Sequence record: MZ956761.1
DNA length: 64,000 nt
Direction: 5' to 3' (one strand)
From: a phage
A program made the translations under genes and the position numbers. Each line of letters begins with the position of its first letter. Positions within the stretch are counted from its first letter, which is position 1. Below, one piece after another: positions 2,736 to 31,910 of the stretch. The notes beneath the pieces were generated by a model. It searched no databases and was not told the DNA's origin. It was given only the letters and a program-made list of their open reading frames with translations.

Positions 2736-2737
2736 AA

Positions 2738-2980: not shown

Positions 2981-2981
2981 T

Positions 2982-3457: not shown

Positions 3458-3459
3458 AT

Positions 3460-3630
3460 ATGATTTACGATATTAGTGTATCAAGAACTCCGTCAATGGT
3501 TACTATTCCAGCTGAAGAACTAGATCGTCTTCAGAAAATTGAAGAACTTCTTTGGGAAATTGAATCTGATTTGCCATCAGGACTAGAATCCTGGATTGAT
3601 TATGAAGAACTTAATAAATTGCGAAATTAA
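3460..3630 (+). CDS. hypothetical acidic protein (56 aa)
   Basis: First ATG after upstream stop; start choice uncertain. Confidence 0.4.
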   Translation: MIYDISVSRTPSMVTIPAEELDRLQKIEELLWEIESDLPSGLESWIDYEELNKLRN

Positions 3631-3640
3631 TTGGTGAAAA

Positions 3641-3961: not shown

Positions 3962-4084
3962 AACCTTGGTGGGCGGCTAGATGGGAAACTGTAGAGCCAG
4001 AGCCGGAAGAACCGGTTTACACTGATGAAGAAACAGTATATAATGAACCAACGATAAATGACTTAATTGATATGGAGATGGGAC

Positions 4085-4489: not shown

Positions 4490-4582
4490 ATGGCTTGAAA
4501 CTCAAATTTCTTTTTCTGACCGAATGATTCAGCAATATAAGCGATTGCATCAAATGTTTTACAATACTTGAAAATAATAAAT

Positions 4583-4607
4583 ACCCTTATCTATTTAAGG
4601 TAAGGGT
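4583..4607 (+). promoter_or_regulatory. RNA hairpin sequestering the gene 49 ribosome-binding site
   Basis: ACCCTTA (4583-4589) / TAAGGGT (4601-4607) inverted repeat, right arm contains the RBS 7 nt before ATG 4613; T4 gene 49 is known to be regulated this way. Confidence 0.55.
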
Positions 4608-4612
4608 TTATT

Positions 4613-5086
4613 ATGTTATTGACTGGCAAATTATATAAAGAAGAAAAACAGAAATTTTATGATGCACAAAACGGTAAATGTTTAATTTGCCAACGAGAAC
4701 TAAATCCTGATGTTCAAGCTAATCACCTTGACCATGACCATGAATTAAATGGACCAAAAGCAGGAAAGGTACGTGGATTGCTTTGTAATCTCTGCAATGC
4801 TGCAGAAGGTCAAATGAAGCATAAATTTAATCGTTCTGGCTTAAAGGGACAAGGTGTTGATTATCTTGAATGGTTAGAAAATTTACTCACTTATTTAAAA
4901 TCCGATTACACCCAAAATAATATTCACCCTAACTTTGTTGGAGATAAATCAAAGGAATTTTCTCGTTTAGGAAAAGAGGAAATGATGGCTGAGATGCTTC
5001 AAAGAGGATTTGAATATAATGAATCTGACACTAAAACACAATTAATAGCTTCATTTAAGAAGCAACTTAGAAAGAGTTTAAAATGA
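4613..5086 (+). CDS. 49: recombination endonuclease VII (Holliday-junction resolvase)
   Basis: 157 aa; CLIC...HLDHDHELNG...CNLCN zinc/HNH-like motif; matches recollection of T4 gp49. Confidence 0.9.
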   Translation: MLLTGKLYKEEKQKFYDAQNGKCLICQRELNPDVQANHLDHDHELNGPKAGKVRGLLCNLCNAAEGQMKHKFNRSGLKGQGVDYLEWLENLLTYLKSDYTQNNIHPNFVGDKSKEFSRLGKEEMMAEMLQRGFEYNESDTKTQLIASFKKQLRKSLK

Positions 5087-6900: not shown

Positions 6901-7367
6901 ATTATGATAGATTTTATCCTTGCGATTTTGTGAATGGCCCTGGATGCAGGGTCGTTCTTTTCGTTACAGGTTGTTTGCATAAATGCGAAGGGTGTTATAA
7001 TAAATCAACATGGAATGCTAGAAACGGTGTTCCATTCACTGGTGAAACGCTGGAACAATTAATTGAATGTTTGAATAATGATTATATAGAAGGATTAACT
7101 ATAACTGGAGGAGACCCTCTCTATCCTGATAACCGAGATGTTGTTCATTGCATTGTTCAAACAGTAAAAAATCTTTATCCCAATAAAAGCATTTGGTTGT
7201 GGACAGGATATAAGTTTGAAGATATTAAACAACTAGAAATGCTTAAATATGTTGATGTTATTATTGATGGGAAGTATGAGAAAAATCTTCCGACTAAAAA
7301 GCTGTGGCGAGGATCAGATAATCAGCGACTTTGGTCAAATACCGATGGGGTGTGGAAACATGATTAA
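6897..7367 (+). CDS. nrdG: anaerobic RNR activating enzyme NrdG (radical SAM)
   Basis: 156 aa; CLHKCEGC (CxxxCxxC) cluster motif; ATGA overlap with nrdD. Confidence 0.9.
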   Translation: MNYDRFYPCDFVNGPGCRVVLFVTGCLHKCEGCYNKSTWNARNGVPFTGETLEQLIECLNNDYIEGLTITGGDPLYPDNRDVVHCIVQTVKNLYPNKSIWLWTGYKFEDIKQLEMLKYVDVIIDGKYEKNLPTKKLWRGSDNQRLWSNTDGVWKHD

Positions 7368-7482
7368 ATTGAATTATATTATGGACACTATAAATGATAT
7401 GATTTTTCATTTTGGTCCAGAATTTTATTCGCAATATAGTTTAGTGCTTATCAATGCTTGGTTAATCAATTAAGGGTAAAAT

Positions 7483-7695
7483 ATGTATAAATTTCGCAAA
7501 GGTTTAGCTGATTTTCTTACAACTGTAACATTCTTTCTGTTTATGGCAGTTGGAGCTATTTTCCTTATTCCTTTTATTGCTATATTTTTCGTGATTAGTT
7601 TGATTTCTCCAGAAAAAGGACTGTCTTCTAGCGAGTTCAATGAGCGTCTGGATAAAATTACTAATAAGCTGAATGCTGCTCTTAGTAAGGAATAG
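7483..7695 (+). CDS. hypothetical membrane protein (70 aa)
   Basis: Hydrophobic helix FFLFMAVGAIFLIPFIAIFFVISLI. Confidence 0.5.
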   Translation: MYKFRKGLADFLTTVTFFLFMAVGAIFLIPFIAIFFVISLISPEKGLSSSEFNERLDKITNKLNAALSKE

Positions 7696-7697
7696 TT

Positions 7698-8006
7698 GTG
7701 AAACAAAACAAGATTGAAGTCTATGGAATTCCAGATGAAGTAGGTCGTTGTCCTGGATGTCAATCAGTTACAAAACTTCTAAAGGAGCTCAATGCTCCTT
7801 TTACTTTCTATAAAGTTCTTACAAATAATGGTAAGATTGAGTATGATCGTCCACTGATTGTATCTCTTGCTAAACGCGCTGGATTCACATCTCTTAACAT
7901 TCGTTATCCAGTCATTTTCATTAATGATTCTAGACAAAAGAACATTAAACACTTCAAAGAAACTCTCATTTCACTCGGATATGATAGAGATATCATAGAA
8001 GACTAA
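7698..8006 (+). CDS. nrdH: glutaredoxin-like protein NrdH
   Basis: 102 aa, CPGC motif, GTG start; synteny next to nrdG. Confidence 0.7.
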   Translation: MKQNKIEVYGIPDEVGRCPGCQSVTKLLKELNAPFTFYKVLTNNGKIEYDRPLIVSLAKRAGFTSLNIRYPVIFINDSRQKNIKHFKETLISLGYDRDIIED

Positions 8007-8010
8007 GACG

Positions 8011-8030
8011 GGCCCTCTGGGCCTTTCTTT
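8011..8030 (+). terminator. GC hairpin with U-rich tail after nrdH
   Basis: GGCCC-TCT-GGGCC then TTTCTTT. Confidence 0.5.
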
Positions 8031-8104
8031 CTCACATTCTGTATATTACCATTCTAAGCTATCGTTCCCTTCTTATCGTTCCCTAAAATAATTTTCACAA
8101 AGTT

Positions 8105-8134
8105 GTTTACAAGAAGTTCAAACTGTGGTATTAT
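8105..8134 (+). promoter_or_regulatory. T4-type early promoter
   Basis: GTTTAC 8105-8110, TATTAT 8129-8134. Confidence 0.6.
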
Positions 8135-8164
8135 TAACATATGAATTGCCTTTGAGGATTTGAT

Positions 8165-8341
8165 ATGGTTGATAAAGAGATTAAAAGGGATCAGTATTAT
8201 CGTGTTAACGGACATATTGTTATTGTTACAGCAGTAGATGATCTAGATGTTCATTATACTGTACTTAAATGGAATAAACAGATGATTTGCGATCGTGCTG
8301 TATTTAGTTCAGCTGCTAAGGAAATTAAACTCCATGGGTAA
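8165..8341 (+). CDS. hypothetical protein (58 aa)
   Basis: ATG 8165 with GAGGA RBS; not in ORF track (below 60 aa). Confidence 0.4.
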   Translation: MVDKEIKRDQYYRVNGHIVIVTAVDDLDVHYTVLKWNKQMICDRAVFSSAAKEIKLHG

Positions 8342-8627
8342 AACGTATCGTCGTAAAGACTTGAAAGTTCGTGATTATGACTATTTCGGAAAGCGTAAAG
8401 CTCCTGATGGTGTAAGTCATAAAGATATGGTTGAAAACATTTTTCGCTCAGATAAATGGCGTAGAATGAAAGGCATTGATTCAGAAGTTAAAGATGAGCT
8501 AAATCGCCAATTACGTGGTGAAGTAAGAAAGTTGAAAAAATCAGTTTACATTGACGATGATTTTGATTACAATACTTCTCAACGAGTTGCTAAGCGTAAA
8601 TCAAACGAGTGCTATCGTTACAGCTGA
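8334..8627 (+). CDS. hypothetical basic protein (97 aa)
   Basis: ATG 8334 overlapping upstream stop; Lys/Arg-rich. Confidence 0.45.
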   Translation: MGKTYRRKDLKVRDYDYFGKRKAPDGVSHKDMVENIFRSDKWRRMKGIDSEVKDELNRQLRGEVRKLKKSVYIDDDFDYNTSQRVAKRKSNECYRYS

Positions 8628-8634
8628 GGAAAAT

Positions 8635-8766
8635 ATGAATATCAAACGCATGCTTTTTAAACAAGGATTATACACTTTAAATGTTGCTCCAAAAGGCGAT
8701 ACGACTAAGTGGTCAGTAAATGACTGGATTAAATTTATTGATGAAAATGGTAACTGGAAAATTTAA
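8635..8766 (+). CDS. hypothetical protein (43 aa)
   Basis: ATG 8635 after GAGGA; short. Confidence 0.35.
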   Translation: MNIKRMLFKQGLYTLNVAPKGDTTKWSVNDWIKFIDENGNWKI

Positions 8767-8967
8767 ATGAATCCTGAATCTAAATTATCGCAACGAATTG
8801 CTGAAGCTCGTCGTCAGTTCTTTGAAAATATGATAGCCCAAGGTATTGATGACGAAGTTTTTCTAAACTGGTTTTGGAATCACAAATATTCAAGTTGCTC
8901 AGGAGCAATATTAATATCAGCTGCAATGATGTACGAAGGCTGGAAGGGTGCCAAACAGTTTAGCTAA
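8767..8967 (+). CDS. hypothetical protein (66 aa)
   Basis: ORF followed by terminator hairpin. Confidence 0.45.
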   Translation: MNPESKLSQRIAEARRQFFENMIAQGIDDEVFLNWFWNHKYSSCSGAILISAAMMYEGWKGAKQFS

Positions 8968-8984
8968 GGGCTTCGGCCCTTTTT
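8966..8984 (+). terminator. intrinsic terminator-like hairpin (UUCG loop)
   Basis: AAGGGC-TTCG-GCCCTT-TTT. Confidence 0.6.
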
Positions 8985-9019
8985 GGATAATAAAATTTTA
9001 ACGCAATTGAGGATAATGT

Positions 9020-9346
9020 ATGACTATTCAAATTAAAAACGCCATCAATTCTTATGCATATGATAAAGTAGTCTCTTTGCTAGAAAAAGGCAATATTGTA
9101 ACTCCTCAAATTTTGGATAAATGGGAAAAAGAGCTTCATCAGACGATGAAACAGAATGATCAGAAAATTGGGCGCAATACTGTCCGCGAATTGTTAGTTC
9201 AATATATCTTGTCAGAATTTGATGTTAAAGCTTTTGGTGTAGAATCTAAAGCTTATCAAAAGCATGAAATTTCCGATAAAACTATTCGTCGCATGAAAAA
9301 TCAACGCAAGAAAAAATTTGCTGACCTGAAAATTGCTAAGGTATGA
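9020..9346 (+). CDS. hypothetical protein (108 aa)
   Basis: ORF with GAGGA RBS. Confidence 0.5.
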   Translation: MTIQIKNAINSYAYDKVVSLLEKGNIVTPQILDKWEKELHQTMKQNDQKIGRNTVRELLVQYILSEFDVKAFGVESKAYQKHEISDKTIRRMKNQRKKKFADLKIAKV

Positions 9347-9564
9347 ATATGAACGAAGCTCTTATTAACGATTTACGTCTTGCCGGATATGAAGTAAATA
9401 CAAATAGCATTGGTTTAACTCAAATTGAAGGAAATGGATTCATCCTTGAGTATGAATTTAGCCAATGGTGGTTATACGCTAATTATGGCGAATTGATTGA
9501 ATACGTTGACCAGTTTGATTCACTAGATGCAGCTCTTGAAGCGGCTAAGTTGATGAATGCATGA
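9343..9564 (+). CDS. hypothetical acidic protein (73 aa)
   Basis: ATGA-coupled ORF. Confidence 0.5.
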   Translation: MNMNEALINDLRLAGYEVNTNSIGLTQIEGNGFILEYEFSQWWLYANYGELIEYVDQFDSLDAALEAAKLMNA

Positions 9565-9830
9565 AATTTATTAATATTTCTATTACTATTGAAAATTATG
9601 GCATTTTCTATGTTGATCAATACATGAAAATTTCATTTTTCCCAAATAAGACTGGTGTTGGATATTGGGAAAGCCATGTTTCTGAATTAAATGAAAGTGA
9701 ATATGCTAGCACACATGAAAAGTTTTTAGACTTTTTATATCATGCTGATTTAACTAGTCATTATATAGATATTCATGAATTTAAAAAGATGATGGAGAAA
9801 GTGTTCCAAGCATACTGCTTACTTAGATAA
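9561..9830 (+). CDS. hypothetical protein (89 aa)
   Basis: ATGA-coupled ORF. Confidence 0.5.
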   Translation: MKFINISITIENYGIFYVDQYMKISFFPNKTGVGYWESHVSELNESEYASTHEKFLDFLYHADLTSHYIDIHEFKKMMEKVFQAYCLLR

Positions 9831-9908
9831 CTAATATCCTCTATGCTTTAAGATAGATCTTCAAATATTATGATATAATAGATCTATGAATTGAGCTAAG
9901 AGGTGAAA

Positions 9909-10466
9909 ATGTCAGAAACTAAGCCTAAATATAATTACGTAAACAATAAAGAGCTTTTACAAGCTATTATTGATTGGAAAACAGAATTAGCAAATAATAA
10001 AGACCCAAATAAAGTAGTTCGTCAGAATGATACTATCGGATTAGCCATTATGCTTATTGCAGAAGGCTTATCTAAACGTTTCAACTTTTCAGGATACACC
10101 CAATCCTGGAAACAAGAAATGATTGCAGATGGTATAGAAGCTTCTATTAAGGGGCTTCATAATTTTGATGAAACGAAATATAAAAACCCACATGCATATA
10201 TAACTCAAGCTTGTTTTAATGCATTCGTCCAACGTATTAAAAAAGAACGTAAGGAAGTTGCAAAGAAATACAGTTACTTCGTTCACAATGTCTATGACAG
10301 TCGTGACGACGATATGGTTGCGTTAGTAGATGAAACTTTTATTCAAGACATCTACGATAAAATGACGCATTACGAAGAATCAACCTATAGAACACCGGGG
10401 GCTGAAAAGAAAAGTGTTGTAGACGATTCTCCTAGTTTGGATTTTTTATATGAGGCTAACGATTAA
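9909..10466 (+). CDS. 55: late-transcription sigma factor gp55
   Basis: 185 aa from ATG 9909; N-terminus [20 protein letters not shown] matches my recollection of T4 gp55. Confidence 0.9.
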
Positions 10467-10668
10467 CCTCTCCGGATTCTTGGAAGAAATACCTGAAGTT
10501 GAAGCTATTCCCTATTTACTTAAAATGTATCTCAGGGAAGTTTTAGCTCTTGACATTGATATTGATCCAGAAAATCCGTATGATACCGCTTTTAAATCTA
10601 ATGGTGTAGAATTAAACTATCGGTATCATTTAACAGATGATGATTTTTATTTTATATTAGAGAAATAA
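10450..10668 (+). CDS. hypothetical protein (72 aa)
   Basis: ORF overlapping gp55 3' end. Confidence 0.4.
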
Positions 10669-10669
10669 T

Positions 10670-10987
10670 ATGACTGATAAACCCGAAATTAATGATGAAG
10701 TGGAAAAGCTTATTTCTTCTATTGAAGAAAAGAACCGTCTTGAAGCAGAAAGAAAAGCAAATAAGTTATTGTCTAAAAACAAACGCGAACTGAACCGTCT
10801 TTATAAGCACGCTCAGATTGCAGCTGAAAACAATAATTTTGCTCAATACGAATATGCTATCAAGAAAAGTCGGGATATTCTAAAACAGCCATATAACGAT
10901 GAACTCATTAGTATTCTTTGGAAGACTACTAGATCGCAGATTGAGGATATGATTGATGCTTACACATGTAAAATTCAAGCGTCTTAA
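10670..10987 (+). CDS. hypothetical protein (105 aa)
   Basis: ORF. Confidence 0.5.
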   Translation: MTDKPEINDEVEKLISSIEEKNRLEAERKANKLLSKNKRELNRLYKHAQIAAENNNFAQYEYAIKKSRDILKQPYNDELISILWKTTRSQIEDMIDAYTCKIQAS

Positions 10988-11159
10988 AATTAATGCAGGA
11001 TTTACTGAATCTTTGAATGGTCATCTTTGTGTGAAAATTTCTGAAAAAGAATACCATGATAGTTCAATTAAAGAAGTTAATCCTCCTATTGTAAGAGCAG
11101 ACCCTAATATGAAAGTGTGGGTTGATTCTTATCAAGTCAAAAAATGGTGGCAACTGTGA
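10953..11159 (+). CDS. hypothetical protein (68 aa)
   Basis: ORF overlapping upstream 3' end in another frame. Confidence 0.4.
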   Translation: MMLTHVKFKRLKINAGFTESLNGHLCVKISEKEYHDSSIKEVNPPIVRADPNMKVWVDSYQVKKWWQL

Positions 11160-11162
11160 AAG

Positions 11163-11336
11163 ATGAACGCCCAGACTTGTGAAATAGATTATAATAAAAT
11201 TCGTTCCTCTAAAGTAGAAATGATGAGGCGCTTTAAAGAGTCTCATGATAAAGCTAAAGCAGAAGGAACTATAACATATAAGCGCATAAAATTTAGAAGC
11301 TCTAATGAGCCTCTGTATGGTGTATTATGCGGATAG
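11163..11336 (+). CDS. hypothetical protein (57 aa)
   Basis: ATG 11163 just after upstream stop; below ORF-track cutoff. Confidence 0.35.
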   Translation: MNAQTCEIDYNKIRSSKVEMMRRFKESHDKAKAEGTITYKRIKFRSSNEPLYGVLCG

Positions 11337-11350
11337 GAGCTTCGGCTCCT
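11335..11350 (+). terminator. UUCG-loop hairpin (terminator or RNA stability element)
   Basis: AGGAGC-TTCG-GCTCCT, no strong U tract. Confidence 0.4.
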
Positions 11351-11353
11351 ATA

Positions 11354-11378
11354 TTGCTTTATAAATTTTTGGTAAAAT
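11354..11378 (+). promoter_or_regulatory. candidate MotA-dependent middle promoter upstream of a-gt
   Basis: TTGCTTTA box 11354-11361, about 11 nt, TAAAAT 11373-11378. Confidence 0.4.
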
Positions 11379-11402
11379 AAACCAAAACAATGAGGATATT
11401 AA

Positions 11403-12605
11403 ATGAAAGTATGCATTTTTATGGCTCGAGGTCTTGAAGGTTGTGGTGTAACTAAATTTTCTCTTGAGCAACGTGATTGGTTTATTAAAAATGGTCATGA
11501 AGTAACTTTGGTTTATGCTAAAGATAAATCATTTACTCGTAACTGCGCGCACGATTATAAATCATTTTCAATTCCGGTTTTATTGGCAAAAGAATACGAT
11601 AAAACACTTAAGCTGGTAAATGATTGTGATATTCTAATTATCAATTCAGTTCCTGCTACTTCAGTTGAAGAAGACACTATTAATAACTATAAAAAAATTA
11701 TTGATAACATTAAACCTTCGGTTCGTGTTGTAGTTTATCAACATGACCATTCTTCTCTTTCTTTGCGACGAAATTTGGGATTAGAAGAAACTGTTCGTCG
11801 AGCTGATGTTATTTTTAGCCATTCTGATAATGGTGATTTTAATAAAGTTCTGATGAAAGAATGGTATCCAGAAACTGTTTCTCTGTTTGATGATATTGAA
11901 GAAGCGCCGACAGTATATAACTTTCAGCCTCCTATGGATATTGCGAAGGTTCGGTCAACCTACTGGAAAGATGTTTCTGAAATTAACATGAATGTCAACC
12001 GTTGGATTGGTCGTACGACTACATGGAAGGGTTTTTATCAGATGTTTGATTTTCACGAAAAACATCTTAAACCTGCAGGACTAAGTACTATTATGGAAGG
12101 TCTGGAACGTTCTCCAGCATTCATTCCTATTAAAGAAAAAGGAATTCCATACGAGTATTATCGTCTTCATCAAGTAGACCAAATTAAAATTGCTCCTAAT
12201 TTGCCAACGCAAATTCTTGACCGTTATGTAAATAGCGAAATGCTTGAGCGTATGAGTAAATCCGGATTTGGTTATCAGTTGAGTAAGTTGGATAAAAAAT
12301 ATCTACAACGTTCTTTAGAATATACTCATCTCGAGCTTGGTGCATGTGGAACAATTCCGGTATTTTGGAAATCTACTGGCGAAAATTTAAAATTCCGTGT
12401 TGATAATACTCCTTTGACCTCACATGATAGCGGTATCATTTGGTTTGATGAAAATGATATGGAATCAACATTCGAGCGTATTAAAGAACTGTCATCTGAC
12501 CGAGCTCTTTATGACCGTGAGCGAGAAAAAGCGTATGAATTTTTGTATCAGCATCAAGATTCAAGCTTCTGCTTTAAAGAACAGTTTGACATTATTACAA
12601 AATAA
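11403..12605 (+). CDS. a-gt: DNA alpha-glucosyltransferase
   Basis: 400 aa, same size and position (between 55 and 47) as T4 a-gt. Confidence 0.8.
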   Translation: MKVCIFMARGLEGCGVTKFSLEQRDWFIKNGHEVTLVYAKDKSFTRNCAHDYKSFSIPVLLAKEYDKTLKLVNDCDILIINSVPATSVEEDTINNYKKIIDNIKPSVRVVVYQHDHSSLSLRRNLGLEETVRRADVIFSHSDNGDFNKVLMKEWYPETVSLFDDIEEAPTVYNFQPPMDIAKVRSTYWKDVSEINMNVNRWIGRTTTWKGFYQMFDFHEKHLKPAGLSTIMEGLERSPAFIPIKEKGIPYEYYRLHQVDQIKIAPNLPTQILDRYVNSEMLERMSKSGFGYQLSKLDKKYLQRSLEYTHLELGACGTIPVFWKSTGENLKFRVDNTPLTSHDSGIIWFDENDMESTFERIKELSSDRALYDREREKAYEFLYQHQDSSFCFKEQFDIITK

Positions 12606-12620
12606 AGGGCTTCGGCCCTT
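12605..12620 (+). terminator. UUCG-loop hairpin after a-gt
   Basis: AAGGGC-TTCG-GCCCTT. Confidence 0.55.
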
Positions 12621-12644
12621 TAGCTTTATACGGAGTTTGATATA

Positions 12645-12785
12645 ATGATATTTCTTGGATATGTGATACTTTTTCTAGCGTTTTATCTATTCGCCAGAGC
12701 ATGTTGGATTGGGTTCTTTAGCACTCCAGATGGATTTATTTCAATAATTTTATTTTGCATTTCAATGACGGTTCTTGATATATGA
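12645..12785 (+). CDS. hypothetical small membrane protein (46 aa)
   Basis: ATG 12645 with GGAG RBS; hydrophobic; stop overlaps gene 47 start. Confidence 0.4.
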   Translation: MIFLGYVILFLAFYLFARACWIGFFSTPDGFISIILFCISMTVLDI

Positions 12786-13801
12786 AAATTTTAAATTTAG
12801 GTGATTGGCATTTAGGTGTTAAAGCCGATGATGAGTGGGTTCAATCTATTCAGCTGGATGGAATTAAACAAGCAATAGAATATTCTAAGAAAAACGGAAT
12901 TACTACATGGATTCAATACGGCGATATTTTTGATGTGCGAAAAGCAATCACGCATAAAACTATGGAGTTCGCTCGTGAAATAGTTCAAATGCTTGATGAT
13001 GCTGGTATTACCCTACATACTGTTGTAGGAAACCATGATATGCACTTTAAAAATACTTTAACTCCAAATGCTTCTACTGAGCTTTTGGCTAAATATCCTA
13101 ATGTTAAAGTATATGATAAGCCTACTACAGTAGATTTTGACGGATGTTTAATTGATTTAATTCCTTGGATGTGTGAAGAAAATACTGGTGAAATTCTTGA
13201 ACACATCAAAACTTCATCTGCTTCTTTTTGCGTTGGTCACTGGGAACTGAATGGATTTTATTTTTATAAAGGAATGAAATCTCACGGTCTTGAACCTGAT
13301 TTCCTTAAGACTTATAAGGAAGTGTGGTCTGGTCACTTCCATACTATCTCTGAGGCTGCTAACGTCAGATATATTGGGACACCATGGACACTAACTGCAG
13401 GTGACGAGAATGACCCTCGTGGGTTCTGGATGTTTGATACAGAAACAGAACGAATGGAATTTATTCCAAACAACACCACCTGGCATCGTCGAATTCAATA
13501 TCCATTTAAGGGAAAAATTGACTATAAAGATTTTACAAATCTATCAGTACGTGTTATAGTAACTGAGGTAGACAAAAATCTAACGAAGTTCGAATCTGAA
13601 CTAGAAAAAGTTGTGCATTCATTACGAGTTGTGTCAAAGATTGATAACTCTGTCGAGTCAGATGATAGTGAAGAAGTTGAAGTTCAATCTCTTCAGACAT
13701 TGATGGAAGAATACATTAATGCAATTCCAGACATCACTGATTCTGATCGCGAAGCACTTATTCAATATGCAAATCAGTTATATGTAGAGGCAACACAATG
13801 A
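12782..13801 (+). CDS. 47: recombination nuclease subunit gp47 (Mre11-like)
   Basis: 339 aa; GDWHLG and GNHD phosphoesterase motifs. Confidence 0.9.
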   Translation: MKILNLGDWHLGVKADDEWVQSIQLDGIKQAIEYSKKNGITTWIQYGDIFDVRKAITHKTMEFAREIVQMLDDAGITLHTVVGNHDMHFKNTLTPNASTELLAKYPNVKVYDKPTTVDFDGCLIDLIPWMCEENTGEILEHIKTSSASFCVGHWELNGFYFYKGMKSHGLEPDFLKTYKEVWSGHFHTISEAANVRYIGTPWTLTAGDENDPRGFWMFDTETERMEFIPNNTTWHRRIQYPFKGKIDYKDFTNLSVRVIVTEVDKNLTKFESELEKVVHSLRVVSKIDNSVESDDSEEVEVQSLQTLMEEYINAIPDITDSDREALIQYANQLYVEATQ

Positions 13802-14061
13802 CTTTTGATGAATTTAAAAATGTTATGATGAGTCAGCATTTTGAATGCGAAGTAAAAGATGATATTGGGCATAAAGAAATTATTGAATATTGGTTTGAAC
13901 CGCTAGAGGTTGAAGATAATTGTATTAAAAAGGTTACGGTCTGCACTGACTGGGCTGTATCTTTTAACTTCAACATTTTAGATAATGATACACCTAAATC
14001 ATTACAAGATATGGCTGTATCTTGTATTAAGGATGCATACTGTGAAGTTTTCGACATTTGA
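13798..14061 (+). CDS. hypothetical protein (87 aa)
   Basis: ATGA-coupled ORF. Confidence 0.45.
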   Translation: MTFDEFKNVMMSQHFECEVKDDIGHKEIIEYWFEPLEVEDNCIKKVTVCTDWAVSFNFNILDNDTPKSLQDMAVSCIKDAYCEVFDI

Positions 14062-14248
14062 CATTAATGATGAATTCATAGCAAATATTGATTACACCGA
14101 AGAAGATTCTAGATATGTTGGAATAATTTATATCACATCAAAAGCAGCACAAGGCGTTGTTTGCATGGCTGAATTTGATGAATACTTTTTAGATTATGAT
14201 GATATGATAGAATGGTCTAAAAGATACATTAAAAGGAATCTTTTGTGA
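14033..14248 (+). CDS. hypothetical protein (about 71 aa)
   Basis: ATG 14033 in frame of listed ORF 13985-14248; start uncertain. Confidence 0.4.
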   Translation: MHTVKFSTFDINDEFIANIDYTEEDSRYVGIIYITSKAAQGVVCMAEFDEYFLDYDDMIEWSKRYIKRNLL

Positions 14249-15933
14249 AGAATTTTAAACTAAACCGAGTTAGGTATCAAAATATAATGTCAGTAGGTGG
14301 AAATCCTATTGACATTCAACTAGATAAGGTTCAAAAAACTCTTATTACTGGACGAAATGGCGGTGGTAAGTCTACTATGTTAGAAGCCATCACATTTGGG
14401 CTTTTTGGCAAGCCATTTCGTGATGTAAAGAAAGGTCAATTAATAAACAGCACAAATAAGAAAGAACTTTTAGTTGAACTGTGGATGGAATATGATGAGA
14501 AAAAGTACTATATCAAAAGAGGACAAAAACCAAACGTTTTCGAAATCACCGTTAACGGTACACGTCTTAATGAATCTGCCAGCAGTAAAGATTTCCAAGC
14601 AGAATTTGAACAGCTTATCGGAATGTCATATGCCAGTTTCAAGCAGATTGTTGTCCTTGGTACAGCAGGGTATACCCCTTTCATGGGTTTGTCGACCCCT
14701 GCACGAAGAAAGCTTGTGGAAGACCTGCTCGAGGTAGGAACATTAGCTGAAATGGATAAGCTTAATAAAGCACTAATACGTGAATTAAATTCACAAAACC
14801 AAGTGCTTGATGTTAAAAAAGATAGTATTATCCAACAAATTAAAATATATAATGATAACGTTGAACGCCAGAAAAAATTAACTGGTGATAACCTTACTCG
14901 TCTACAGAATATGTATGATGATTTGGCAAAAGAAGCTAGAACGTTAAAATCGGAAATAGAAGAAGCTAATGAAAGATTAGTTAATATTGTTTTGGATGAA
15001 GACCCGACTGATGCATTTAATAAAATCGGTCAAGAAGCATTTTTAATTAAATCAAAAATTGACTCGTATAATAAAGTCATTAATATGTATCACGAAGGTG
15101 GATTATGTCCAACCTGTTTGTCACAATTAAGTTCCGGTGATAAAGTTGTTTCTAAAATTAAAGATAAAGTTTCTGAATGCACGCATTCGTTTGAACAGCT
15201 TTCAACNCNNCNNGNNNNNNNNNNAGTATNTCGTTNNTNANTNNNGNGATNNTNNNAANNNCNANNNGTNNGTTGCTTGCNNNTNNTNTGTNNCNNTNNA
15301 AANCANTNNNTNNNCACGACTGTAGATAAAGCTAAAANAGTTAAAGCAGCTATAGAANAAGCATCATCTGAGTTTATTGNCCATGCTGATNAAATNGCNC
15401 TGCTTNAAGANGAACTTGATAAAATTGTTAAGNCAAANACTAATTTNNTAATGGAAAAATNCCACNGAGGAATTTTGACTGATATGCTCAAAGATTCTGG
15501 TATTAANGGTGCTATTATTAAAAAGTACATTCCATTATTTAATAAGCAGATTAACCATTATCTTAAAATAATGGAAGCGGATTATGTGTTTACATTAGAT
15601 GAAGAATTTAATGAGACAATTAAATCCCGTGGTCGTGAAGATTTTAGTTATGCTTCATTCAGTCAAGGCGAAAAAGCACGAATTGATATTGCTCTTCTAT
15701 TTACTTGGCGTGATATTGCTGAAAAAGTTTCAGGTGTTAAAATAAACACACTAATTCTCGATGAAGTTTTTGATTCAGCAACTGATGTTGAAGGTGTAAA
15801 AGCTATTTCAACTATTTTAGATAGTTTAAAAAATACTAATGTTTTTGTTATTTCACATAGAGACCACGACCCGCAAGCATATGGTCAGCATCTTCAAATG
15901 AAGAAAGTTGGTCGATTTACTGTAATGGTTTAA
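14245..15933 (+). CDS. 46: recombination ATPase gp46 (Rad50/SbcC-like)
   Basis: 562 aa; Walker A GRNGGGKST; central part contains ambiguous bases. Confidence 0.85.
   Translation: MKNFKLNRVRYQNIMSVGGNPIDIQLDKVQKTLITGRNGGGKSTMLEAITFGLFGKPFRDVKKGQLINSTNKKELLVELWMEYDEKKYYIKRGQKPNVFEITVNGTRLNESASSKDFQAEFEQLIGMSYASFKQIVVLGTAGYTPFMGLSTPARRKLVEDLLEVGTLAEMDKLNKALIRELNSQNQVLDVKKDSIIQQIKIYNDNVERQKKLTGDNLTRLQNMYDDLAKEARTLKSEIEEANERLVNIVLDEDPTDAFNKIGQEAFLIKSKIDSYNKVINMYHEGGLCPTCLSQLSSGDKVVSKIKDKVSECTHSFEQLSXXXXXXXVXRXXXXXXXXXXXXXCLXXXCXXXXXXXXTTVDKAKXVKAAIEXASSEFIXHADXXXLLXXELDKIVKXXTNXXMEKXHXGILTDMLKDSGIXGAIIKKYIPLFNKQINHYLKIMEADYVFTLDEEFNETIKSRGREDFSYASFSQGEKARIDIALLFTWRDIAEKVSGVKINTLILDEVFDSATDVEGVKAISTILDSLKNTNVFVISHRDHDPQAYGQHLQMKKVGRFTVMV
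15207..15507. other. run of ambiguous bases (N) inside gene 46
   Basis: Scattered N characters in the sequence. Confidence 0.95.
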
Positions 15934-19527: not shown

Positions 19528-19568
19528 AGAGCCTAATAACTCGGGCTATAAACTAAGGAATATCTATG
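19528..19568 (+). promoter_or_regulatory. gene 43 translational operator (autoregulatory hairpin plus RBS)
   Basis: AGCC-UAAUAACUC-GGGCU hairpin then AAGGAA RBS and ATG; resembles recalled T4 operator. Confidence 0.5.
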
Positions 19569-22262
19569 AAAGAATTTTATATCTCTATCGAAACAGTCGG
19601 AAATAACATTGTTGAGCGTTATATTGATGAAAATGGAAAGGAACGTACTCGTGAAGTAGAATATCTTCCGACTATGTTTAGGCATTGTAAGGAAGAGTCA
19701 AAATACAAAGACATTTATGGTAAAAACTGTGCTCCTCAAAAATTTCCATCAATGAAAGATGCACGAGACTGGATGAAGCGAATGGAAGACATCGGTCTCG
19801 AAGCTCTCGGTATGAACGATTTTAAACTCGCTTATATCAGTGATACATATGGTTCAGAAATTGTTTATGACCGAAAATTTGTTCGTGTAGCTAACTGTGA
19901 CATTGAGGTTACTGGTGATAAATTTCCTGACCCAATGAAAGCAGAATATGAAATTGATGCTATCACTCATTATGATTCAATTGACGACCGTTTTTACGTC
20001 TTTGATTTGTTGAATTCAATGTACGGTTCAGTATCAAAATGGGACGCAAAGTTAGCTGCTAAGCTTGACTGTGAAGGTGGTGATGAAGTTCCTCAAGAAA
20101 TTCTTGACCGAGTAATTTATATGCCATTTGATAATGAGCGTGATATGCTCATGGAATATATTAATCTCTGGGAACAGAAACGACCTGCTATTTTTACTGG
20201 TTGGAATATTGAGGGATTTGACGTTCCGTATATCATGAATCGCGTTAAAATGGTTCTCGGCGAACGTAGTATGAAACGCTTCTCTCCAATCGGTCGAGTA
20301 AAATCTAAACTAATTCAAAATATGTACGGTAGCAAAGAAATTTATTCTATTGATGGCGTATCTATTCTTGATTATTTAGATTTATACAAGAAGTTTGCAT
20401 TTACTAATTTGCCATCGTTCTCTTTGGAATCAGTTGCTCAACATGAAACCAAAAAAGGTAAATTGCCGTACGATGGTCCTATTAATAAACTTCGTGAGAC
20501 TAATCATCAACGATACATTAGTTATAACATCATTGACGTAGAATCAGTTCAAGCAATTGATAAAATTCGTGGGTTTATCGATCTAGTTTTAAGTATGTCT
20601 TATTACGCTAAAATGCCTTTTTCTGGTGTAATGAGTCCTATTAAAACTTGGGATGCTATTATTTTTAACTCACTGAAAGGTGAACATAAGGTTATTCCTC
20701 AACAAGGTTCGCACGTTAAACAGAGTTTTCCAGGTGCATTTGTGTTTGAACCTAAACCGATTGCTCGTCGATACATTATGAGTTTTGACTTGACGTCTCT
20801 GTATCCTAGCATTATTCGTCAGGTTAACATTAGTCCTGAGACTATTCGCGGGCAGTTTAAAGTTCATCCAATTCATGAATATATCGCAGGAACAGCTCCT
20901 AAGCCAAGTGATGAATATTCTTGCTCTCCGAATGGATGGATGTATGATAAGCACCAAGAAGGTATCATTCCAAAGGAAATCGCTAAAGTATTTTTCCAGC
21001 GTAAAGATTGGAAAAAGAAAATGTTCGCGGAAGAAATGAATGCCGAAGCTATTAAAAAGATTATTATGAAAGGTGCAGGGTCTTGCTCAACTAAACCAGA
21101 AGTTGAACGATATGTTAAGTTCAGTGATGATTTCTTAAACGAATTATCGAATTACACCGAATCTGTTCTTAACAGTCTGATTGAAGAATGTGAAAAAGCG
21201 GCTACACTTGCTAACACAAATCAGCTGAACCGTAAAATTCTTATTAACAGTCTTTATGGTGCTCTTGGTAATATTCATTTCCGCTACTATGATTTGCGAA
21301 ATGCTACTGCTATCACAATTTTCGGTCAAGTTGGTATTCAGTGGATTGCTCGTAAAATTAATGAATATCTGAATAAAGTATGTGGAACTAATGGTGAAGA
21401 TTTCATCGCAGCAGGTGATACTGATTCGGTATATGTTTGTGTAGATAAAGTAATTGAAAAAGTAGGTCTTGACCGCTTTAAAGAACAAAATGATTTAGTT
21501 GAATTCATGAATCAGTTTGGTAAGAAAAAGATGGAACCTATGATTGATGTTGCATATCGTGAGTTATGTGATTATATGAATAACCGCGAGCATCTGATGC
21601 ATATGGACCGTGAAGCTATTTCTTGCCCTCCGCTTGGTTCAAAGGGTGTTGGTGGATTTTGGAAAGCGAAAAAACGTTATGCTCTGAACGTTTATGATAT
21701 GGAAGATAAGCGATTTGCTGAACCGCATCTAAAAATCATGGGTATGGAAACTCAGCAGAGTTCAACACCAAAAGCAGTACAAGAAGCTCTCGAAGAAAGT
21801 ATTCGTCGTATTCTTCAGGAAGGTGAAGAGTCTGTCCAAGAATACTACAAGAACTTTGAGAAAGAATATCGTCAACTTGATTATAAAGTTATTGCTGAAG
21901 TAAAAACTGCGAACGATATAGCGAAATATGATGATAAAGGTTGGCCAGGATTTAAATGTCCGTTCCATATTCGTGGGGTGCTAACTTATCGTCGAGCTGT
22001 TAGTGGTTTAGGTGTAGCTCCAATTTTGGATGGAAATAAAGTAATGGTTCTTCCATTACGTGAAGGAAATCCATTTGGTGACAAGTGCATTGCTTGGCCG
22101 TCGGGCACAGAACTTCCAAAAGAAATTCGTTCTGACGTACTGTCTTGGATTGACTACTCAACTTTGTTCCAAAAATCGTTTGTTAAACCGCTTGCGGGCA
22201 TGTGTGAATCGGCTGGTATGGACTATGAAGAAAAAGCTTCGTTAGACTTCCTGTTTGGCTGA
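19566..22262 (+). CDS. 43: DNA polymerase gp43 (family B)
   Basis: 898 aa; exonuclease and polymerase motifs (KILINSLYGALGN, DTDS). Confidence 0.95.
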   Translation: MKEFYISIETVGNNIVERYIDENGKERTREVEYLPTMFRHCKEESKYKDIYGKNCAPQKFPSMKDARDWMKRMEDIGLEALGMNDFKLAYISDTYGSEIVYDRKFVRVANCDIEVTGDKFPDPMKAEYEIDAITHYDSIDDRFYVFDLLNSMYGSVSKWDAKLAAKLDCEGGDEVPQEILDRVIYMPFDNERDMLMEYINLWEQKRPAIFTGWNIEGFDVPYIMNRVKMVLGERSMKRFSPIGRVKSKLIQNMYGSKEIYSIDGVSILDYLDLYKKFAFTNLPSFSLESVAQHETKKGKLPYDGPINKLRETNHQRYISYNIIDVESVQAIDKIRGFIDLVLSMSYYAKMPFSGVMSPIKTWDAIIFNSLKGEHKVIPQQGSHVKQSFPGAFVFEPKPIARRYIMSFDLTSLYPSIIRQVNISPETIRGQFKVHPIHEYIAGTAPKPSDEYSCSPNGWMYDKHQEGIIPKEIAKVFFQRKDWKKKMFAEEMNAEAIKKIIMKGAGSCSTKPEVERYVKFSDDFLNELSNYTESVLNSLIEECEKAATLANTNQLNRKILINSLYGALGNIHFRYYDLRNATAITIFGQVGIQWIARKINEYLNKVCGTNGEDFIAAGDTDSVYVCVDKVIEKVGLDRFKEQNDLVEFMNQFGKKKMEPMIDVAYRELCDYMNNREHLMHMDREAISCPPLGSKGVGGFWKAKKRYALNVYDMEDKRFAEPHLKIMGMETQQSSTPKAVQEALEESIRRILQEGEESVQEYYKNFEKEYRQLDYKVIAEVKTANDIAKYDDKGWPGFKCPFHIRGVLTYRRAVSGLGVAPILDGNKVMVLPLREGNPFGDKCIAWPSGTELPKEIRSDVLSWIDYSTLFQKSFVKPLAGMCESAGMDYEEKASLDFLFG

Positions 22263-22275
22263 TAGAATAAATCTA

Positions 22276-22297
22276 GGGACCTCCGGGTCCCTTTTTC
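22276..22297 (+). terminator. intrinsic terminator after gene 43
   Basis: AGGGACC-TCCG-GGTCCCT-TTTT. Confidence 0.65.
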
Positions 22298-22378
22298 ATA
22301 CAAGTAATATAAATCTATACTTATGAAAAACAGATGATTCTGGACCTTTAGAATTCCCCAAAAAATTTTCACAAAACT

Positions 22379-22408
22379 GTTTACAAGACTGTTCTTCCAT
22401 GGTACTAT
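22379..22408 (+). promoter_or_regulatory. T4-type early promoter with conserved leader
   Basis: GTTTAC 22379-22384, TACTAT 22403-22408; leader to ATG identical to 49600-49644. Confidence 0.6.
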
Positions 22409-22442
22409 ACAACTATCAACTAATACGGATTTGGAGAATAAA

Positions 22443-22679
22443 ATGAAAATTGTTATGGGATGCTTAGCAGTTTGTTTAGTTGCATTAGCAGCTGTTCCAT
22501 TTATTGATATTGAAAATGATACTCAGAATGTGATTGAATCTAATACTGTTATTCACATGAATGGTAAAGTATCAACAAAAATTGATGATAATCTTCATAT
22601 GAATACTAATGGAACGCTGGGTGTTCAATTAGGTAATACCTGTGTAAGCACTACTGGAGTAATTACTACTTGTATTTGA
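22443..22679 (+). CDS. hypothetical secreted protein (78 aa)
   Basis: ATG 22443 with GGAG RBS; N-terminal signal-like hydrophobic segment. Confidence 0.5.
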   Translation: MKIVMGCLAVCLVALAAVPFIDIENDTQNVIESNTVIHMNGKVSTKIDDNLHMNTNGTLGVQLGNTCVSTTGVITTCI

Positions 22680-22689
22680 GGAAATTATT

Positions 22690-23070
22690 ATGAAAATCGC
22701 TATTTTGGTTATTGCATTAGGTCTTACTGGTTGTGTAGCTCAAGGACCGGTAGTAAATCAGTCTGATGTAGGAAAAATTGTAAACTGTTCAAGCAAATTT
22801 TATAATCCTAATGTCAAGTGTTATAAAGAAGCTCCAAAACAGACAGTAGAACAAATGCAGGCGAATTTTGACGAAGCTATTCGTCCAGATGAATCTGCTC
22901 AAGCATATCGTAATTCGGATGTAATTACACGCGAAGAAAAAATTGAAAACTACTGCGCTGAACTTTGGGCTAATTGGGCTAATAATTACCAATGGCGTAC
23001 TGGTAAAAATGCTCCGATGGAGTATGTAGTGAATTCTTATAATTCATGTGTAAAAAATTTGACTAAGTGA
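22690..23070 (+). CDS. putative lipoprotein (126 aa)
   Basis: Signal peptide with lipobox LTGC. Confidence 0.55.
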   Translation: MKIAILVIALGLTGCVAQGPVVNQSDVGKIVNCSSKFYNPNVKCYKEAPKQTVEQMQANFDEAIRPDESAQAYRNSDVITREEKIENYCAELWANWANNYQWRTGKNAPMEYVVNSYNSCVKNLTK

Positions 23071-23077
23071 GGAAAAC

Positions 23078-23329
23078 ATGGAAACTTTAGTAGCAGGTTC
23101 AATTTTTATGGTTTTAGTTTCAGGTGTGTTGGCTATTATTATATACATGCTTCCATGGTTTATCGCCTTGATGCGTGGGTCAAAATCGACAGTAGGAATC
23201 TTTTTCACATCTTTACTGTTTAACTGGTCAATTATTGGTTGGTTTATTACATTTATTTGGTCAATTGCGGGTGAAACTAAAAAGTCTGCACAACCAAATC
23301 AGGTAATTATCATCAGAGAGAAGGAATGA
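23078..23329 (+). CDS. imm: two-TM membrane protein, candidate Imm (superinfection immunity)
   Basis: 83 aa, two hydrophobic helices; position between 43 and 42 and size match T4 imm; sequence not verified. Confidence 0.5.
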   Translation: METLVAGSIFMVLVSGVLAIIIYMLPWFIALMRGSKSTVGIFFTSLLFNWSIIGWFITFIWSIAGETKKSAQPNQVIIIREKE

Positions 23330-23475
23330 AAAGCAAAATTATAGCAGTGTTGCTTTTAATCTTGATGATTATAATAAGTATATACTATAGTGTAACGGTT
23401 CCTCTTATGATTCCAACTATTATTTTAGGTTGGGGTTTATTACTGTTACAAGTTAAATATGAATGTATCAATTGA
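23326..23475 (+). CDS. hypothetical small membrane protein (49 aa)
   Basis: ATGA-coupled; strongly hydrophobic; below ORF-track cutoff. Confidence 0.35.
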   Translation: MKSKIIAVLLLILMIIISIYYSVTVPLMIPTIILGWGLLLLQVKYECIN

Positions 23476-23482
23476 GGTTTAA

Positions 23483-24223
23483 ATGATTAGTGACTCTATG
23501 ACAGTTGAAGAAATCCGTCTTCATTTGGGGCTTGCATTAAAAGAAAAAGATTTCGTAGTTGATAAAACCGGTGTTAAAACTATTGAAATTATTGGTGCAT
23601 CATTTGTAGCAGATGAACCGTTTATTTTTGGCGCTCTTAATGATGAATACATTCAACGTGAACTTGAATGGTATAAATCTAAAAGTTTGTTTGTTAAAGA
23701 TATTCCGGGTGAAACACCGAAGATTTGGCAGCAGGTAGCATCTTCTAAAGGCGAAATTAACTCGAATTATGGTTGGGCCATCTGGTCAGAAGATAACTAT
23801 GCCCAGTATGATATGTGTTTAGCTGAACTTGGTCAAAATCCTGATTCTCGGCGTGGTATCATGATTTATACTCGTCCATCCATGCAATTTGACTATAATA
23901 AAGATGGTATGTCAGATTTCATGTGCACGAATACAGTACAGTACCTGATTCGTGATAAGAAAGTTAATGCAGTAGTAAGCATGCGTTCAAATGACGTGGT
24001 CTTCGGATTCCGTAATGATTATGCATGGCAAAAATACGTACTAGATAAATTAGTATCTGATTTGAATGCAGGTGATTCAACTCGTCAGTATAAAGCAGGT
24101 TCTATTATATGGAATGTTGGAAGTCTTCATGTATATTCTCGTCATTTTTACTTGGTTGATCATTGGTGGAATACTGGCGAAACTCATATTGTGAAAAAAG
24201 ATTATAAAGGTGAGTGGAAATGA
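23483..24223 (+). CDS. 42: dCMP hydroxymethylase gp42
   Basis: 246 aa, thymidylate-synthase-like fold; synteny. Confidence 0.85.
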   Translation: MISDSMTVEEIRLHLGLALKEKDFVVDKTGVKTIEIIGASFVADEPFIFGALNDEYIQRELEWYKSKSLFVKDIPGETPKIWQQVASSKGEINSNYGWAIWSEDNYAQYDMCLAELGQNPDSRRGIMIYTRPSMQFDYNKDGMSDFMCTNTVQYLIRDKKVNAVVSMRSNDVVFGFRNDYAWQKYVLDKLVSDLNAGDSTRQYKAGSIIWNVGSLHVYSRHFYLVDHWWNTGETHIVKKDYKGEWK

Positions 24224-25062
24224 TTCAATTCGTAATTCCAAGCTATCAACGCGTAGGGGCAGTTTCTGCCCTTGATATGTTTCCGACTGATTATGAACCT
24301 CATATTGTAGTACGTGAACACGAAGAAAAAGCTTATTATGACGCTTACGGGTCTAGAGCTAAAATTATAACTATTCCTGATGATGTTAACGGAATTGCTG
24401 GTACTCGTAAAGCAATTACTGATATGTATGCAGGTCAACGAATTTGGATGATTGATGATGATACTACTATTCGTATGAGTTCAATGCGAAAGAAAGATGA
24501 TCGTCGCTGCGTAGATAAAATTAATCAATTAACTCGTGAACAGTTCTATGAATTGATTCAATACGTTGAAGATGCCATGGATTGCGGGTATTATCATGGT
24601 CATGCTCGTTTACCAATTTTTAAAATTACTTCATCTTGGGGTAATTATCGTGAAAATTCATATGGATTCACGAATACTTGGTATGACCTCGGGAAACTTA
24701 CAACAGAACAAATTGGGTATGGAAAAATTGATTTATGCGAAGATATGTATGCATTTCTCAATTTAATTAATCAAGGTTATCCGCATTTGGCCTTGTTCAA
24801 ATATCTGGTTGTATCTGGAAAAGCACAGGCTCCAGGCGGATGTAGTTCAATTCGTAGTAATTCAAAACATAATAGAGCTCTTGAGCAAATCAATAGAGAG
24901 TTTCCAGAGCAAGCTCGTTGGAAAACATCGAATATCGAAAAGAGAAAATCGTTGGGTGAAGAAGACGAGCCATTAAAAGTTCTTCGCATGTGTGTTTCGC
25001 GCAAAGAAAAATCAGAAGCATTTCATAAGTTTAATGCTATTCATCCAATAGCAGTTGATTAA
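24220..25062 (+). CDS. DNA glucosyltransferase, not T4 beta-gt-like (possibly beta-alpha-gt type)
   Basis: 280 aa from ATG 24220; IWMIDDD motif; occupies the beta-gt slot between 42 and uvsX but is shorter and unlike recalled T4 beta-gt. Confidence 0.55.
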   Translation: MIQFVIPSYQRVGAVSALDMFPTDYEPHIVVREHEEKAYYDAYGSRAKIITIPDDVNGIAGTRKAITDMYAGQRIWMIDDDTTIRMSSMRKKDDRRCVDKINQLTREQFYELIQYVEDAMDCGYYHGHARLPIFKITSSWGNYRENSYGFTNTWYDLGKLTTEQIGYGKIDLCEDMYAFLNLINQGYPHLALFKYLVVSGKAQAPGGCSSIRSNSKHNRALEQINREFPEQARWKTSNIEKRKSLGEEDEPLKVLRMCVSRKEKSEAFHKFNAIHPIAVD

Positions 25063-25139
25063 TGCCTAAATTTATTGTGTTATAATTACTCTATCTTTAA
25101 CCAGTGAGGAAAATATAATGTTGCCTATGGAAAAAATGA

Positions 25140-26321
25140 ATGTCTATTGCAGATTTAAAATCCCGTTTGATTAAAGCTTCCACTTCTAAAATGACTGCTG
25201 AACTGACTACATCTAAATTCTTTAATGAAAAGGATGTAATCCGTACAAAAATCCCAATGCTTAATATCGCTATTTCTGGTGCGATTGATGGTGGTATGCA
25301 GTCTGGTTTAACCATTTTTGCAGGTCCTTCTAAACACTTTAAATCAAATATGTCTTTGACTATGGTTGCAGCGTATTTGAACAAATATCCTGACGCGGTA
25401 TGTCTATTCTATGATAGCGAATTTGGTATTACTCCTGCTTATTTGCGATCCATGGGAGTTGACCCGGAACGAGTAATTCATACGCCAATTCAGTCAGTTG
25501 AACAGCTGAAAATTGATATGGTGAATCAGCTTGAAGCTATTGAGCGTGGTGAAAAAGTTATTGTATTCATCGACTCAATTGGTAATATGGCTTCTAAGAA
25601 AGAAACGGAAGATGCCTTGAATGAAAAATCTGTGGCAGATATGACTCGTGCTAAATCACTGAAGTCATTATTCCGTATTGTTACTCCTTATTTTAGTATT
25701 AAAAACATTCCGTGCGTTGCGGTTAACCATACAATTGAAACAATTGAAATGTTTAGTAAAACCGTGATGACAGGTGGTACAGGCGTAATGTATTCGGCTG
25801 ATACTGTATTCATTATCGGTAAGCGCCAGATTAAAGATGGTTCTGATCTTCAGGGGTATCAATTTGTTCTAAATGTAGAAAAATCTCGTACCGTTAAAGA
25901 AAAAAGTAAATTCTTTATTGATGTTAAATTTGACGGTGGCATCGATCCTTATTCTGGATTGTTAGATATGGCTCTAGAATTAGGATTTGTGGTAAAACCT
26001 AAAAATGGCTGGTATGCTCGTGAATTTCTTGATGAAGAAACCGGCGAGATGATTCGCGAAGAAAAATCTTGGCGTGCAAAAGATACCAACTGTACTACAT
26101 TCTGGGGTCCTTTATTTAAGCATCAACCATTCCGAGATGCTATTAAACGTGCTTATCAGTTAGGTGCTATTGATAGTAATGAAATTGTTGAAGCTGAGGT
26201 TGATGAATTGATTAACTCAAAGGTTGAAAAATTTAAATCTCCAGAAAGTAAAAGTAAATCAGCAGCTGATTTAGAAACTGACCTAGATCAGTTAAGTGAT
26301 ATGGAAGAATTTAATGAATAA
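25140..26321 (+). CDS. uvsX: RecA-like recombinase UvsX
   Basis: 393 aa; Walker A GPSKHFKS; N-terminus DLKSRLIKASTSK as recalled for T4 UvsX. Confidence 0.9.
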   Translation: MSIADLKSRLIKASTSKMTAELTTSKFFNEKDVIRTKIPMLNIAISGAIDGGMQSGLTIFAGPSKHFKSNMSLTMVAAYLNKYPDAVCLFYDSEFGITPAYLRSMGVDPERVIHTPIQSVEQLKIDMVNQLEAIERGEKVIVFIDSIGNMASKKETEDALNEKSVADMTRAKSLKSLFRIVTPYFSIKNIPCVAVNHTIETIEMFSKTVMTGGTGVMYSADTVFIIGKRQIKDGSDLQGYQFVLNVEKSRTVKEKSKFFIDVKFDGGIDPYSGLLDMALELGFVVKPKNGWYAREFLDEETGEMIREEKSWRAKDTNCTTFWGPLFKHQPFRDAIKRAYQLGAIDSNEIVEAEVDELINSKVEKFKSPESKSKSAADLETDLDQLSDMEEFNE

Positions 26322-31391: not shown

Positions 31392-31910
31392 ATGGCTCAC
31401 TTTAATGAATGTGCTCATTTGATCGAAGGTGTTGATAAAGCAAATCGTGCATATGCTGAGTATATTATGCACAGTATTGACCCATTGCAGGTTATGCTTG
31501 ACATGCAGCGGCATTTACAGATTCGTTTGGCTAATGATAAACCAGAAACAAATCGTCATCCTGATTCACTTGAAACTGCAGGAGAAGTTCTTGCTTGGTT
31601 GCGAAACCAAGACGATTATATCGCAGACGAAACTCGCGAGCTATATACTTCTCTTGGTGGTATGAGTAATGGTGAAAAAGAAGCTTCTGCTGTATGGAAA
31701 CCTTGGAAGAAACGTTATTCTGAAATGCAATCCAAGAAAATTCAAGATTTATCTCCTGAAGATCAACTTGAAATTAAATTTGAACTAATTGACCAATTTC
31801 ACTTTTTCATGAATAAATTTATTGCTCTTGGAATGTCAGCTGAAGAAATCTTTAAACTTTATTATCTGAAAAATGCTGAAAACTTCGCTCGTCAAGACCG
31901 AGGCTATTAA
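31392..31910 (+). CDS. 56: dCTP pyrophosphatase gp56
   Basis: 172 aa from ATG 31392 with AAGGAAA RBS; N-terminus and size as recalled for T4 gp56. Confidence 0.8.
   Translation: MAHFNECAHLIEGVDKANRAYAEYIMHSIDPLQVMLDMQRHLQIRLANDKPETNRHPDSLETAGEVLAWLRNQDDYIADETRELYTSLGGMSNGEKEASAVWKPWKKRYSEMQSKKIQDLSPEDQLEIKFELIDQFHFFMNKFIALGMSAEEIFKLYYLKNAENFARQDRGY

Follow-up and report, generated by a model that had tools for sequence, protein, structure and literature searches.

A gene in the beta-gt slot of a T-even-like phage very probably encodes a T2/T6-type glucosyltransferase of the TAGT family

We analyzed a glucosyltransferase gene within 64,000 nucleotides (nt) of phage DNA (sequence record MZ956761.1; this whole stretch is called the window in the following). 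The gene, ba-gt (also ggt), lies on the plus strand at positions 24220..25062 and is intact, encoding 280 amino acids followed by a stop codon. It very probably encodes a beta-glucosyl-HMC-alpha-glucosyltransferase of the T2/T6 type, a member of the TAGT family (TET-associated glycosyltransferase) with a GT-A fold, which would add a second glucose to 5-hydroxymethylcytosine (hmC) that is already alpha-glucosylated. This assignment is supported by the integrity of the open reading frame (ORF), its orthology, its family membership in PHROG and Pfam, the predicted fold, the conserved motifs and the upstream pathway genes found in the window. Donor, acceptor, linkage and metal dependence are transferred from the T2/T6 literature and from GT-A enzymology and would apply here by analogy. 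An earlier sequence-only reading of the window had described the 280 amino acid ORF accurately, including its IWMIDDD motif (residues 75-81).

Over its full length, the protein shares 99% identity with the T2 copy (AP018813) and 98% with the T6 copy (AP018814). The reference genomes compared also included a second T6 record (MH550421) and T4 (NC_000866). In addition to sequence, the gene shares with its T2 and T6 counterparts the length of 280 amino acids (279 in one T6 record), the slot between gene 42 and uvsX, the ATGA overlap with gene 42 and the partner gene a-gt. Compared to the T2 copy, the protein differs at R11, K92, I101 and P251, and compared to the T6 copy at Y40, D55, K92, I101 and R106. 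The allele is thus a mosaic, sharing R11 and P251 with T6 and Y40, D55 and R106 with T2, while two residues are its own; nothing suggests that these substitutions cause a functional difference. At the DNA level, the gene (843 bases) matches Escherichia phage ADUt (OQ466432, Tequatrovirus) with 100% identity and 475 phage records with at least 90%; many of these records carry the annotation beta-glucosyl-HMC-alpha-glucosyltransferase.

Profile searches gave the same assignment. The protein matches PHROG 842, a family named like the T2/T6 enzyme, with an E-value of 5.6e-89. Its score for the Pfam family PF20691 (TAGT) is 38.8 bits (gathering cut-off, 27.5), with residues 3-207 aligned to positions 2-205 of the 205-position profile. 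Approximately 80 C-terminal residues lie outside of this profile, a region in which the structural model discussed below has low to medium confidence. In NCBIfam, neither this protein nor a-gt is represented by a model. Taken with the identity values, the shared slot and the record annotations, these matches bear out the earlier suggestion of a T2/T6-style beta-1,6-glucosyl-alpha-glucose transferase.

Two start codons are available, GTG at 24214 (282 amino acids, listed by the ORF tool) and ATG at 24220 (280 amino acids), both leading to the same end at 25062. The GTG was rejected in favor of the ATG, which is preceded by a Shine-Dalgarno-like GGTGAG and is the annotated start in phages ADUt and T2. 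This ATG overlaps the stop codon TGA of gene 42 in the sequence ATGA.

For the fold prediction, an AlphaFold2 model from the single sequence was unusable (predicted local distance difference test, pLDDT, of 39.5); the model used here, built from a 9-sequence alignment, reached a pLDDT of 71.6 and a predicted template modeling score (pTM) of 0.72. The homologs came from one database search without iteration, which returned 11 clusters down to 29% identity, representing phage-like TAGT proteins that were nearly all flagged as PF20691. The model has a single Rossmann-like alpha/beta/alpha domain, as expected for a GT-A fold. The residues D79-D80-D81 (the DDD of the IWMIDDD motif; codons at 24454..24462, plus strand) directly follow the strand formed by residues 74-78, the usual place of a DxD motif, and we propose them as a DxD-type metal and nucleotide-sugar site.

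D79 and D80 are invariant in four phage homologs down to 22% identity, among them those of Jiaodavirus (65%), Serratia phage SP1 (49%) and Stenotrophomonas phage DLP_6 (22%), the last of which has a serine in place of D81. In nine database homologs, down to 32% identity, all three residues are invariant. The sequence-only reading had called this motif DxD-like, in agreement with the invariance in diverged homologs and the position after a beta-strand of the model. A metal-binding role of the DDD residues would be in line with GT-A enzymology. A second conserved acidic pair, E174-D175 (in LCEDMY; codons at 24739..24744, plus strand), is invariant in the four phage homologs, and its D175 also in the nine database homologs. 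This pair is a candidate for the catalytic base or for an acceptor site, roles which we infer only. The stretch GG-S--R (residues 206-212) is likewise conserved in the homolog alignments.

The score above threshold over the whole profile, the GT-A model and the retained acidic DD motif connect the protein to PF20691. The founding TAGT members, however, are tied to TET/JBP dioxygenase genes. Here, in contrast, the hydroxymethyl group would come from a thymidylate synthase-like deoxycytidine monophosphate (dCMP) hydroxymethylase, and the acceptor would be a sugar already present on the base. Bacterial GT2-family transferases with a GT-A fold (TarP 6H1J, TarS 5TZE, BcsA 9FMV/4P00, SpsA 1H7L) show only 7-17% sequence identity, and unlike theirs, the substrate of the window enzyme would be linked to DNA. 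From the GT2-like GT-A fold, the DxD motif and a beta linkage formed from an alpha-linked uridine diphosphate (UDP) sugar, the enzyme is expected to be inverting and metal-dependent.

The genes that would provide the acceptor are both present in the window. Gene 42 (23483..24223, plus strand) encodes a dCMP hydroxymethylase of 246 amino acids that is 97% identical to T4 gp42 and has weak matches to thymidylate synthase-family models in NCBIfam. The alpha-glucosyltransferase gene a-gt (11403..12605, plus strand) encodes 400 amino acids with 91% identity to T4 a-gt and 91.5% to T6 a-gt. The positions and functions given to both genes by the sequence-only reading were correct. A gene 56-type dCTP pyrophosphatase is considered as context only (31392..31910, plus strand); ADUt has the annotation “dCTP pyrophosphatase” at the same coordinates. 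Such an enzyme would exclude unmodified cytosine from the phage DNA.

In the pathway that we propose, gp42 would produce hydroxymethyl-dCMP while the dCTPase keeps dCTP out of the pool, such that hmC enters the phage DNA. The alpha-glucosyltransferase would then transfer glucose from UDP-glucose to 5-hmC in the DNA in an alpha linkage. The ba-gt enzyme would bind UDP-glucose via its DDD motif, most likely together with a divalent metal, and would attach another glucose to the first one by a beta-1,6 linkage, resulting in gentiobiosyl-hmC. With no beta-gt gene in the window, neither in the beta-gt slot nor elsewhere, beta-monoglucosyl-hmC would not be formed. This order of modification in T-even phages (gp42, alpha-gt and, in T2/T6, a second transferase) is summarized in PMC13216743 and PMC13390438, which cite Lehman and Pratt 1960, Kornberg et al. 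1961 and Kuno and Lehman 1962. The gentiobiosyl-hmC activity is known for T2/T6, and measurements by high-performance liquid chromatography and mass spectrometry exist for related Tequatrovirus phages (PMC13390438).

Several points weigh against this assignment or parts of it. The structural model is of medium confidence, with segments 131-150 and 192-211 below a pLDDT of 50. Searches of the PDB with the protein and with a 4-sequence profile gave only chance matches via His-tag-like HGH stretches and no solved TAGT structure; with no solved structure in the family, the DxD/metal mechanism rests on this model. The activity of the enzyme and the modified nucleosides of the window phage are predictions by analogy to T2 and T6. 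Finally, gentiobiosyl-hmC amounts to ~5% in T2 versus 72% in T6 in spite of nearly identical proteins (PMC13390438); hence, the presence of the gene does not fix the extent of modification.

This last point leads to the alternative that survives best, in which the same enzyme modifies only a small fraction of sites, similar to T2 (~5%). Essentially, such DNA would carry alpha-monoglucosylated hmC along with free hmC, and the gene would have little phenotypic effect. We regard this as possible, if unlikely. It draws on the T2 protein, which is 99% identical to the one studied here while only ~5% of the T2 cytidines are gentiobiosylated compared to 72% in T6, and on the Durham Tequatrovirus phages, which have one gene set and two classes of gentiobiosyl content (PMC13390438). 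In contrast, seven of the ten newly measured Tequatrovirus phages with alpha-GT and TAGT contained about two-thirds gentiobiosyl-hmC (PMC13390438). The allele itself, T6-like at R11 and P251 and T2-like at Y40, D55 and R106, favors neither outcome. Because T2 and T6 differ, two classes of phages exist and the allele is a mosaic, the extent of diglucosylation in the window phage cannot be predicted from sequence.

A related idea, which we consider doubtful, is that the residues setting the protein apart from T2 (R11, K92, I101, P251) and from T6 (Y40, D55, K92, I101, R106) help to set the level of gentiobiosylation. The only observation in its favor is that near-identical enzymes accompany widely differing extents of modification, which could just as well be determined by alpha-gt, by the expression level or by the supply of UDP-glucose. 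If these residues did matter, the determinant, together with the sensitivity to glucose-specific defenses such as Brig1 and GmrSD/BrxU, could be mapped by comparing the more than 470 near-identical natural alleles.

It is very improbable that this TAGT-family transferase uses another acceptor or sugar, for instance by acting directly on hmC or on a substrate other than DNA. The specificity varies within the family, as TAGT homologs occur together with beta-GT or alone in other phages (PMC13216743), and in Serratia phage SP1 a 48% identical homolog adjoins a beta-gt gene. The protein encoded in the window, however, is 98-99% identical to the T2/T6 enzymes, and its gene has the same synteny and is accompanied by alpha-gt, which makes an altered specificity very unlikely.

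Two of the distant homologs have a different genomic context. In Serratia phage SP1 (OM457001, 2992-4940), the TAGT homolog (48%) is located directly upstream of a beta-glucosyltransferase homolog and downstream of a dCMP hydroxymethylase gene, a pairing of beta-GT and TAGT that implies an acceptor linkage different from that of the T2/T6 enzyme. In Stenotrophomonas phage DLP_6 (KU682439, 3001-3864), a distant TAGT (~22%, with IDDS instead of IDDD) follows recombination nuclease genes similar to gp47/gp46. No gene annotated as dCMP hydroxymethylase or as another glucosyltransferase was found in the 6.7-kb stretch covered, and the DLP_6 gene possibly belongs to the “solitary TAGT” cases mentioned in PMC13216743.

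A diverged T4-type beta-glucosyltransferase with a GT-B fold, making beta-monoglucosyl-hmC, would be suggested by the position in the slot of T4 b-gt only, and is refuted by the Pfam result, the negative BLASTP comparison with T4 beta-gt and the GT-A fold of the model. In detail, BLASTP of the protein against T4 beta-gt (351 amino acids, NC_000866) aligned only chance fragments, with a best E-value of 3.4, as anticipated by the sequence-only reading, which had found the two proteins unlike each other. Its proposed comparison with T4 beta-gt on the one hand and the T2/T6 enzymes on the other was null for the former and gave 98-99% identity for the latter. A tblastn search with T4 beta-gt found no homolog in the whole 64-kb window (best E-value of 1.4). 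Apart from TAGT, the Pfam scan of the protein yielded a single sub-threshold chance match and no PF09198, the family of T4 b-gt, which has a GT-B fold (PDB 1JG7); the model of the window protein has a GT-A fold and lacks the two-domain GT-B arrangement. Both enzymes have in common the syntenic slot after gene 42 and would share substrates derived from hmC-DNA and a beta linkage, but they differ in the acceptor, which is hmC itself for T4 b-gt and would be the glucose on hmC for the ba-gt enzyme. In T4, moreover, b-gt is followed by the homing endonuclease gene segA before uvsX, whereas segA is absent from the window.

The homing endonuclease genes beside the T4 glucosyltransferase genes (segA, and mobB beside a-gt) are both absent from the window. 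The gap behind ba-gt (25063-25139) is 77 nt long and the one in front of a-gt (11343-11402) about 60 nt.

The T2/T6-type assignment adds nothing new to biology. Nor is ba-gt a new gene: its T2/T6 counterparts have been available as sequenced clones since 1993 (Winkler and Ruger, NAR 21:1500, as cited in PMC11946311), the underlying chemistry goes back to 1960-62, and in 2026 the family was redescribed together with its fold and distribution. According to the 2026 papers PMC13216743 and PMC13390438, TAGT occupies the beta-gt slot, has a GT-A fold and yields a gentiobiosyl product. TAGT is syntenic with T4 beta-GT, and such phages contain gentiobiosyl-hmC and no beta-glucosyl-hmC (PMC13390438, AEM 2026). 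In Tequatrovirus, alpha-gt plus TAGT is the rule and the T4 combination of alpha-gt and beta-gt a rare exception (PMC13216743). The window shows the T2/T6 arrangement known from textbooks, which most members of the genus share, and the published statements on the slot and on TAGT are reproduced independently for it. The phage is assigned to the T2/T6 type of DNA modification, predicted to comprise 5-hmC, alpha-glucosyl-hmC and alpha-gentiobiosyl-hmC without beta-glucosyl-hmC. The sequence-only reading had stated that the modification pattern influences restriction sensitivity, in agreement with the literature (PMC13216743, PMC13390438), and the assignment helps in predicting the action of type IV restriction enzymes, DNA glycosylases and CRISPR systems on the phage.

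Two lesions were noticed in the T6 records of ba-gt. T6 is the textbook high-gentiobiose phage. Record MH550421 (~4950-4960) has TAG instead of CAG at codon 10, aligned to window positions 24247-24249, and its coding sequence is annotated from Met20 (261 amino acids). Record AP018814 (~4735-4745) has an in-frame 3-nt deletion, aligned to 24454-24462, by which one Asp of IWMIDDD is lost. Both lesions, which could stem from variation in laboratory stocks or from sequencing errors, are absent from the window copy.

The gene order in this part of the window is 43 - imm.1 - imm - 42 - ba-gt - uvsX - 40 - 41, as in T2 and T6. The DNA polymerase gene (gp43) is located at 19566-22262 and uvsX at 25140-26321, both on the plus strand, with genes 40 and 41 following uvsX. 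All genes listed between 22000 and 27500 are on the plus strand, and small membrane-protein genes, including imm.1 and imm, lie between gp43 and gene 42. A promoter scan of the region 22200-25400 gave sites at chance level only (18 found versus 15 expected). A terminator-like hairpin at 24254-24274 lies inside the ba-gt ORF, is followed by a poor T-run and was not taken as functional.

The phage of the window is essentially Escherichia phage ADUt. Positions 1-15206 are 100% identical to ADUt, and positions 15315-50000 are 99.96% identical, with 15 differences that all correspond to Ns in the window. The intervening segment 15207-15314 is heavily speckled with Ns and 6 bases longer than in ADUt. 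The N-speckled patches are 15207-15507 (73 Ns), inside gene 46 for a recombination endonuclease subunit, and 51890-52041 (25 Ns). The ba-gt gene is clear of both, as the region 23400-25200 contains no ambiguous bases.

Two small hydrophobic, membrane-like ORFs flank imm.1/imm, at 23326-23475 (49 amino acids) and 22431-22679 (82 amino acids). Both are hypothetical proteins in ADUt and correspond to unannotated gaps in the T4 record; at the place matching 22431-22679, a gene of 252 nt is annotated in T2.
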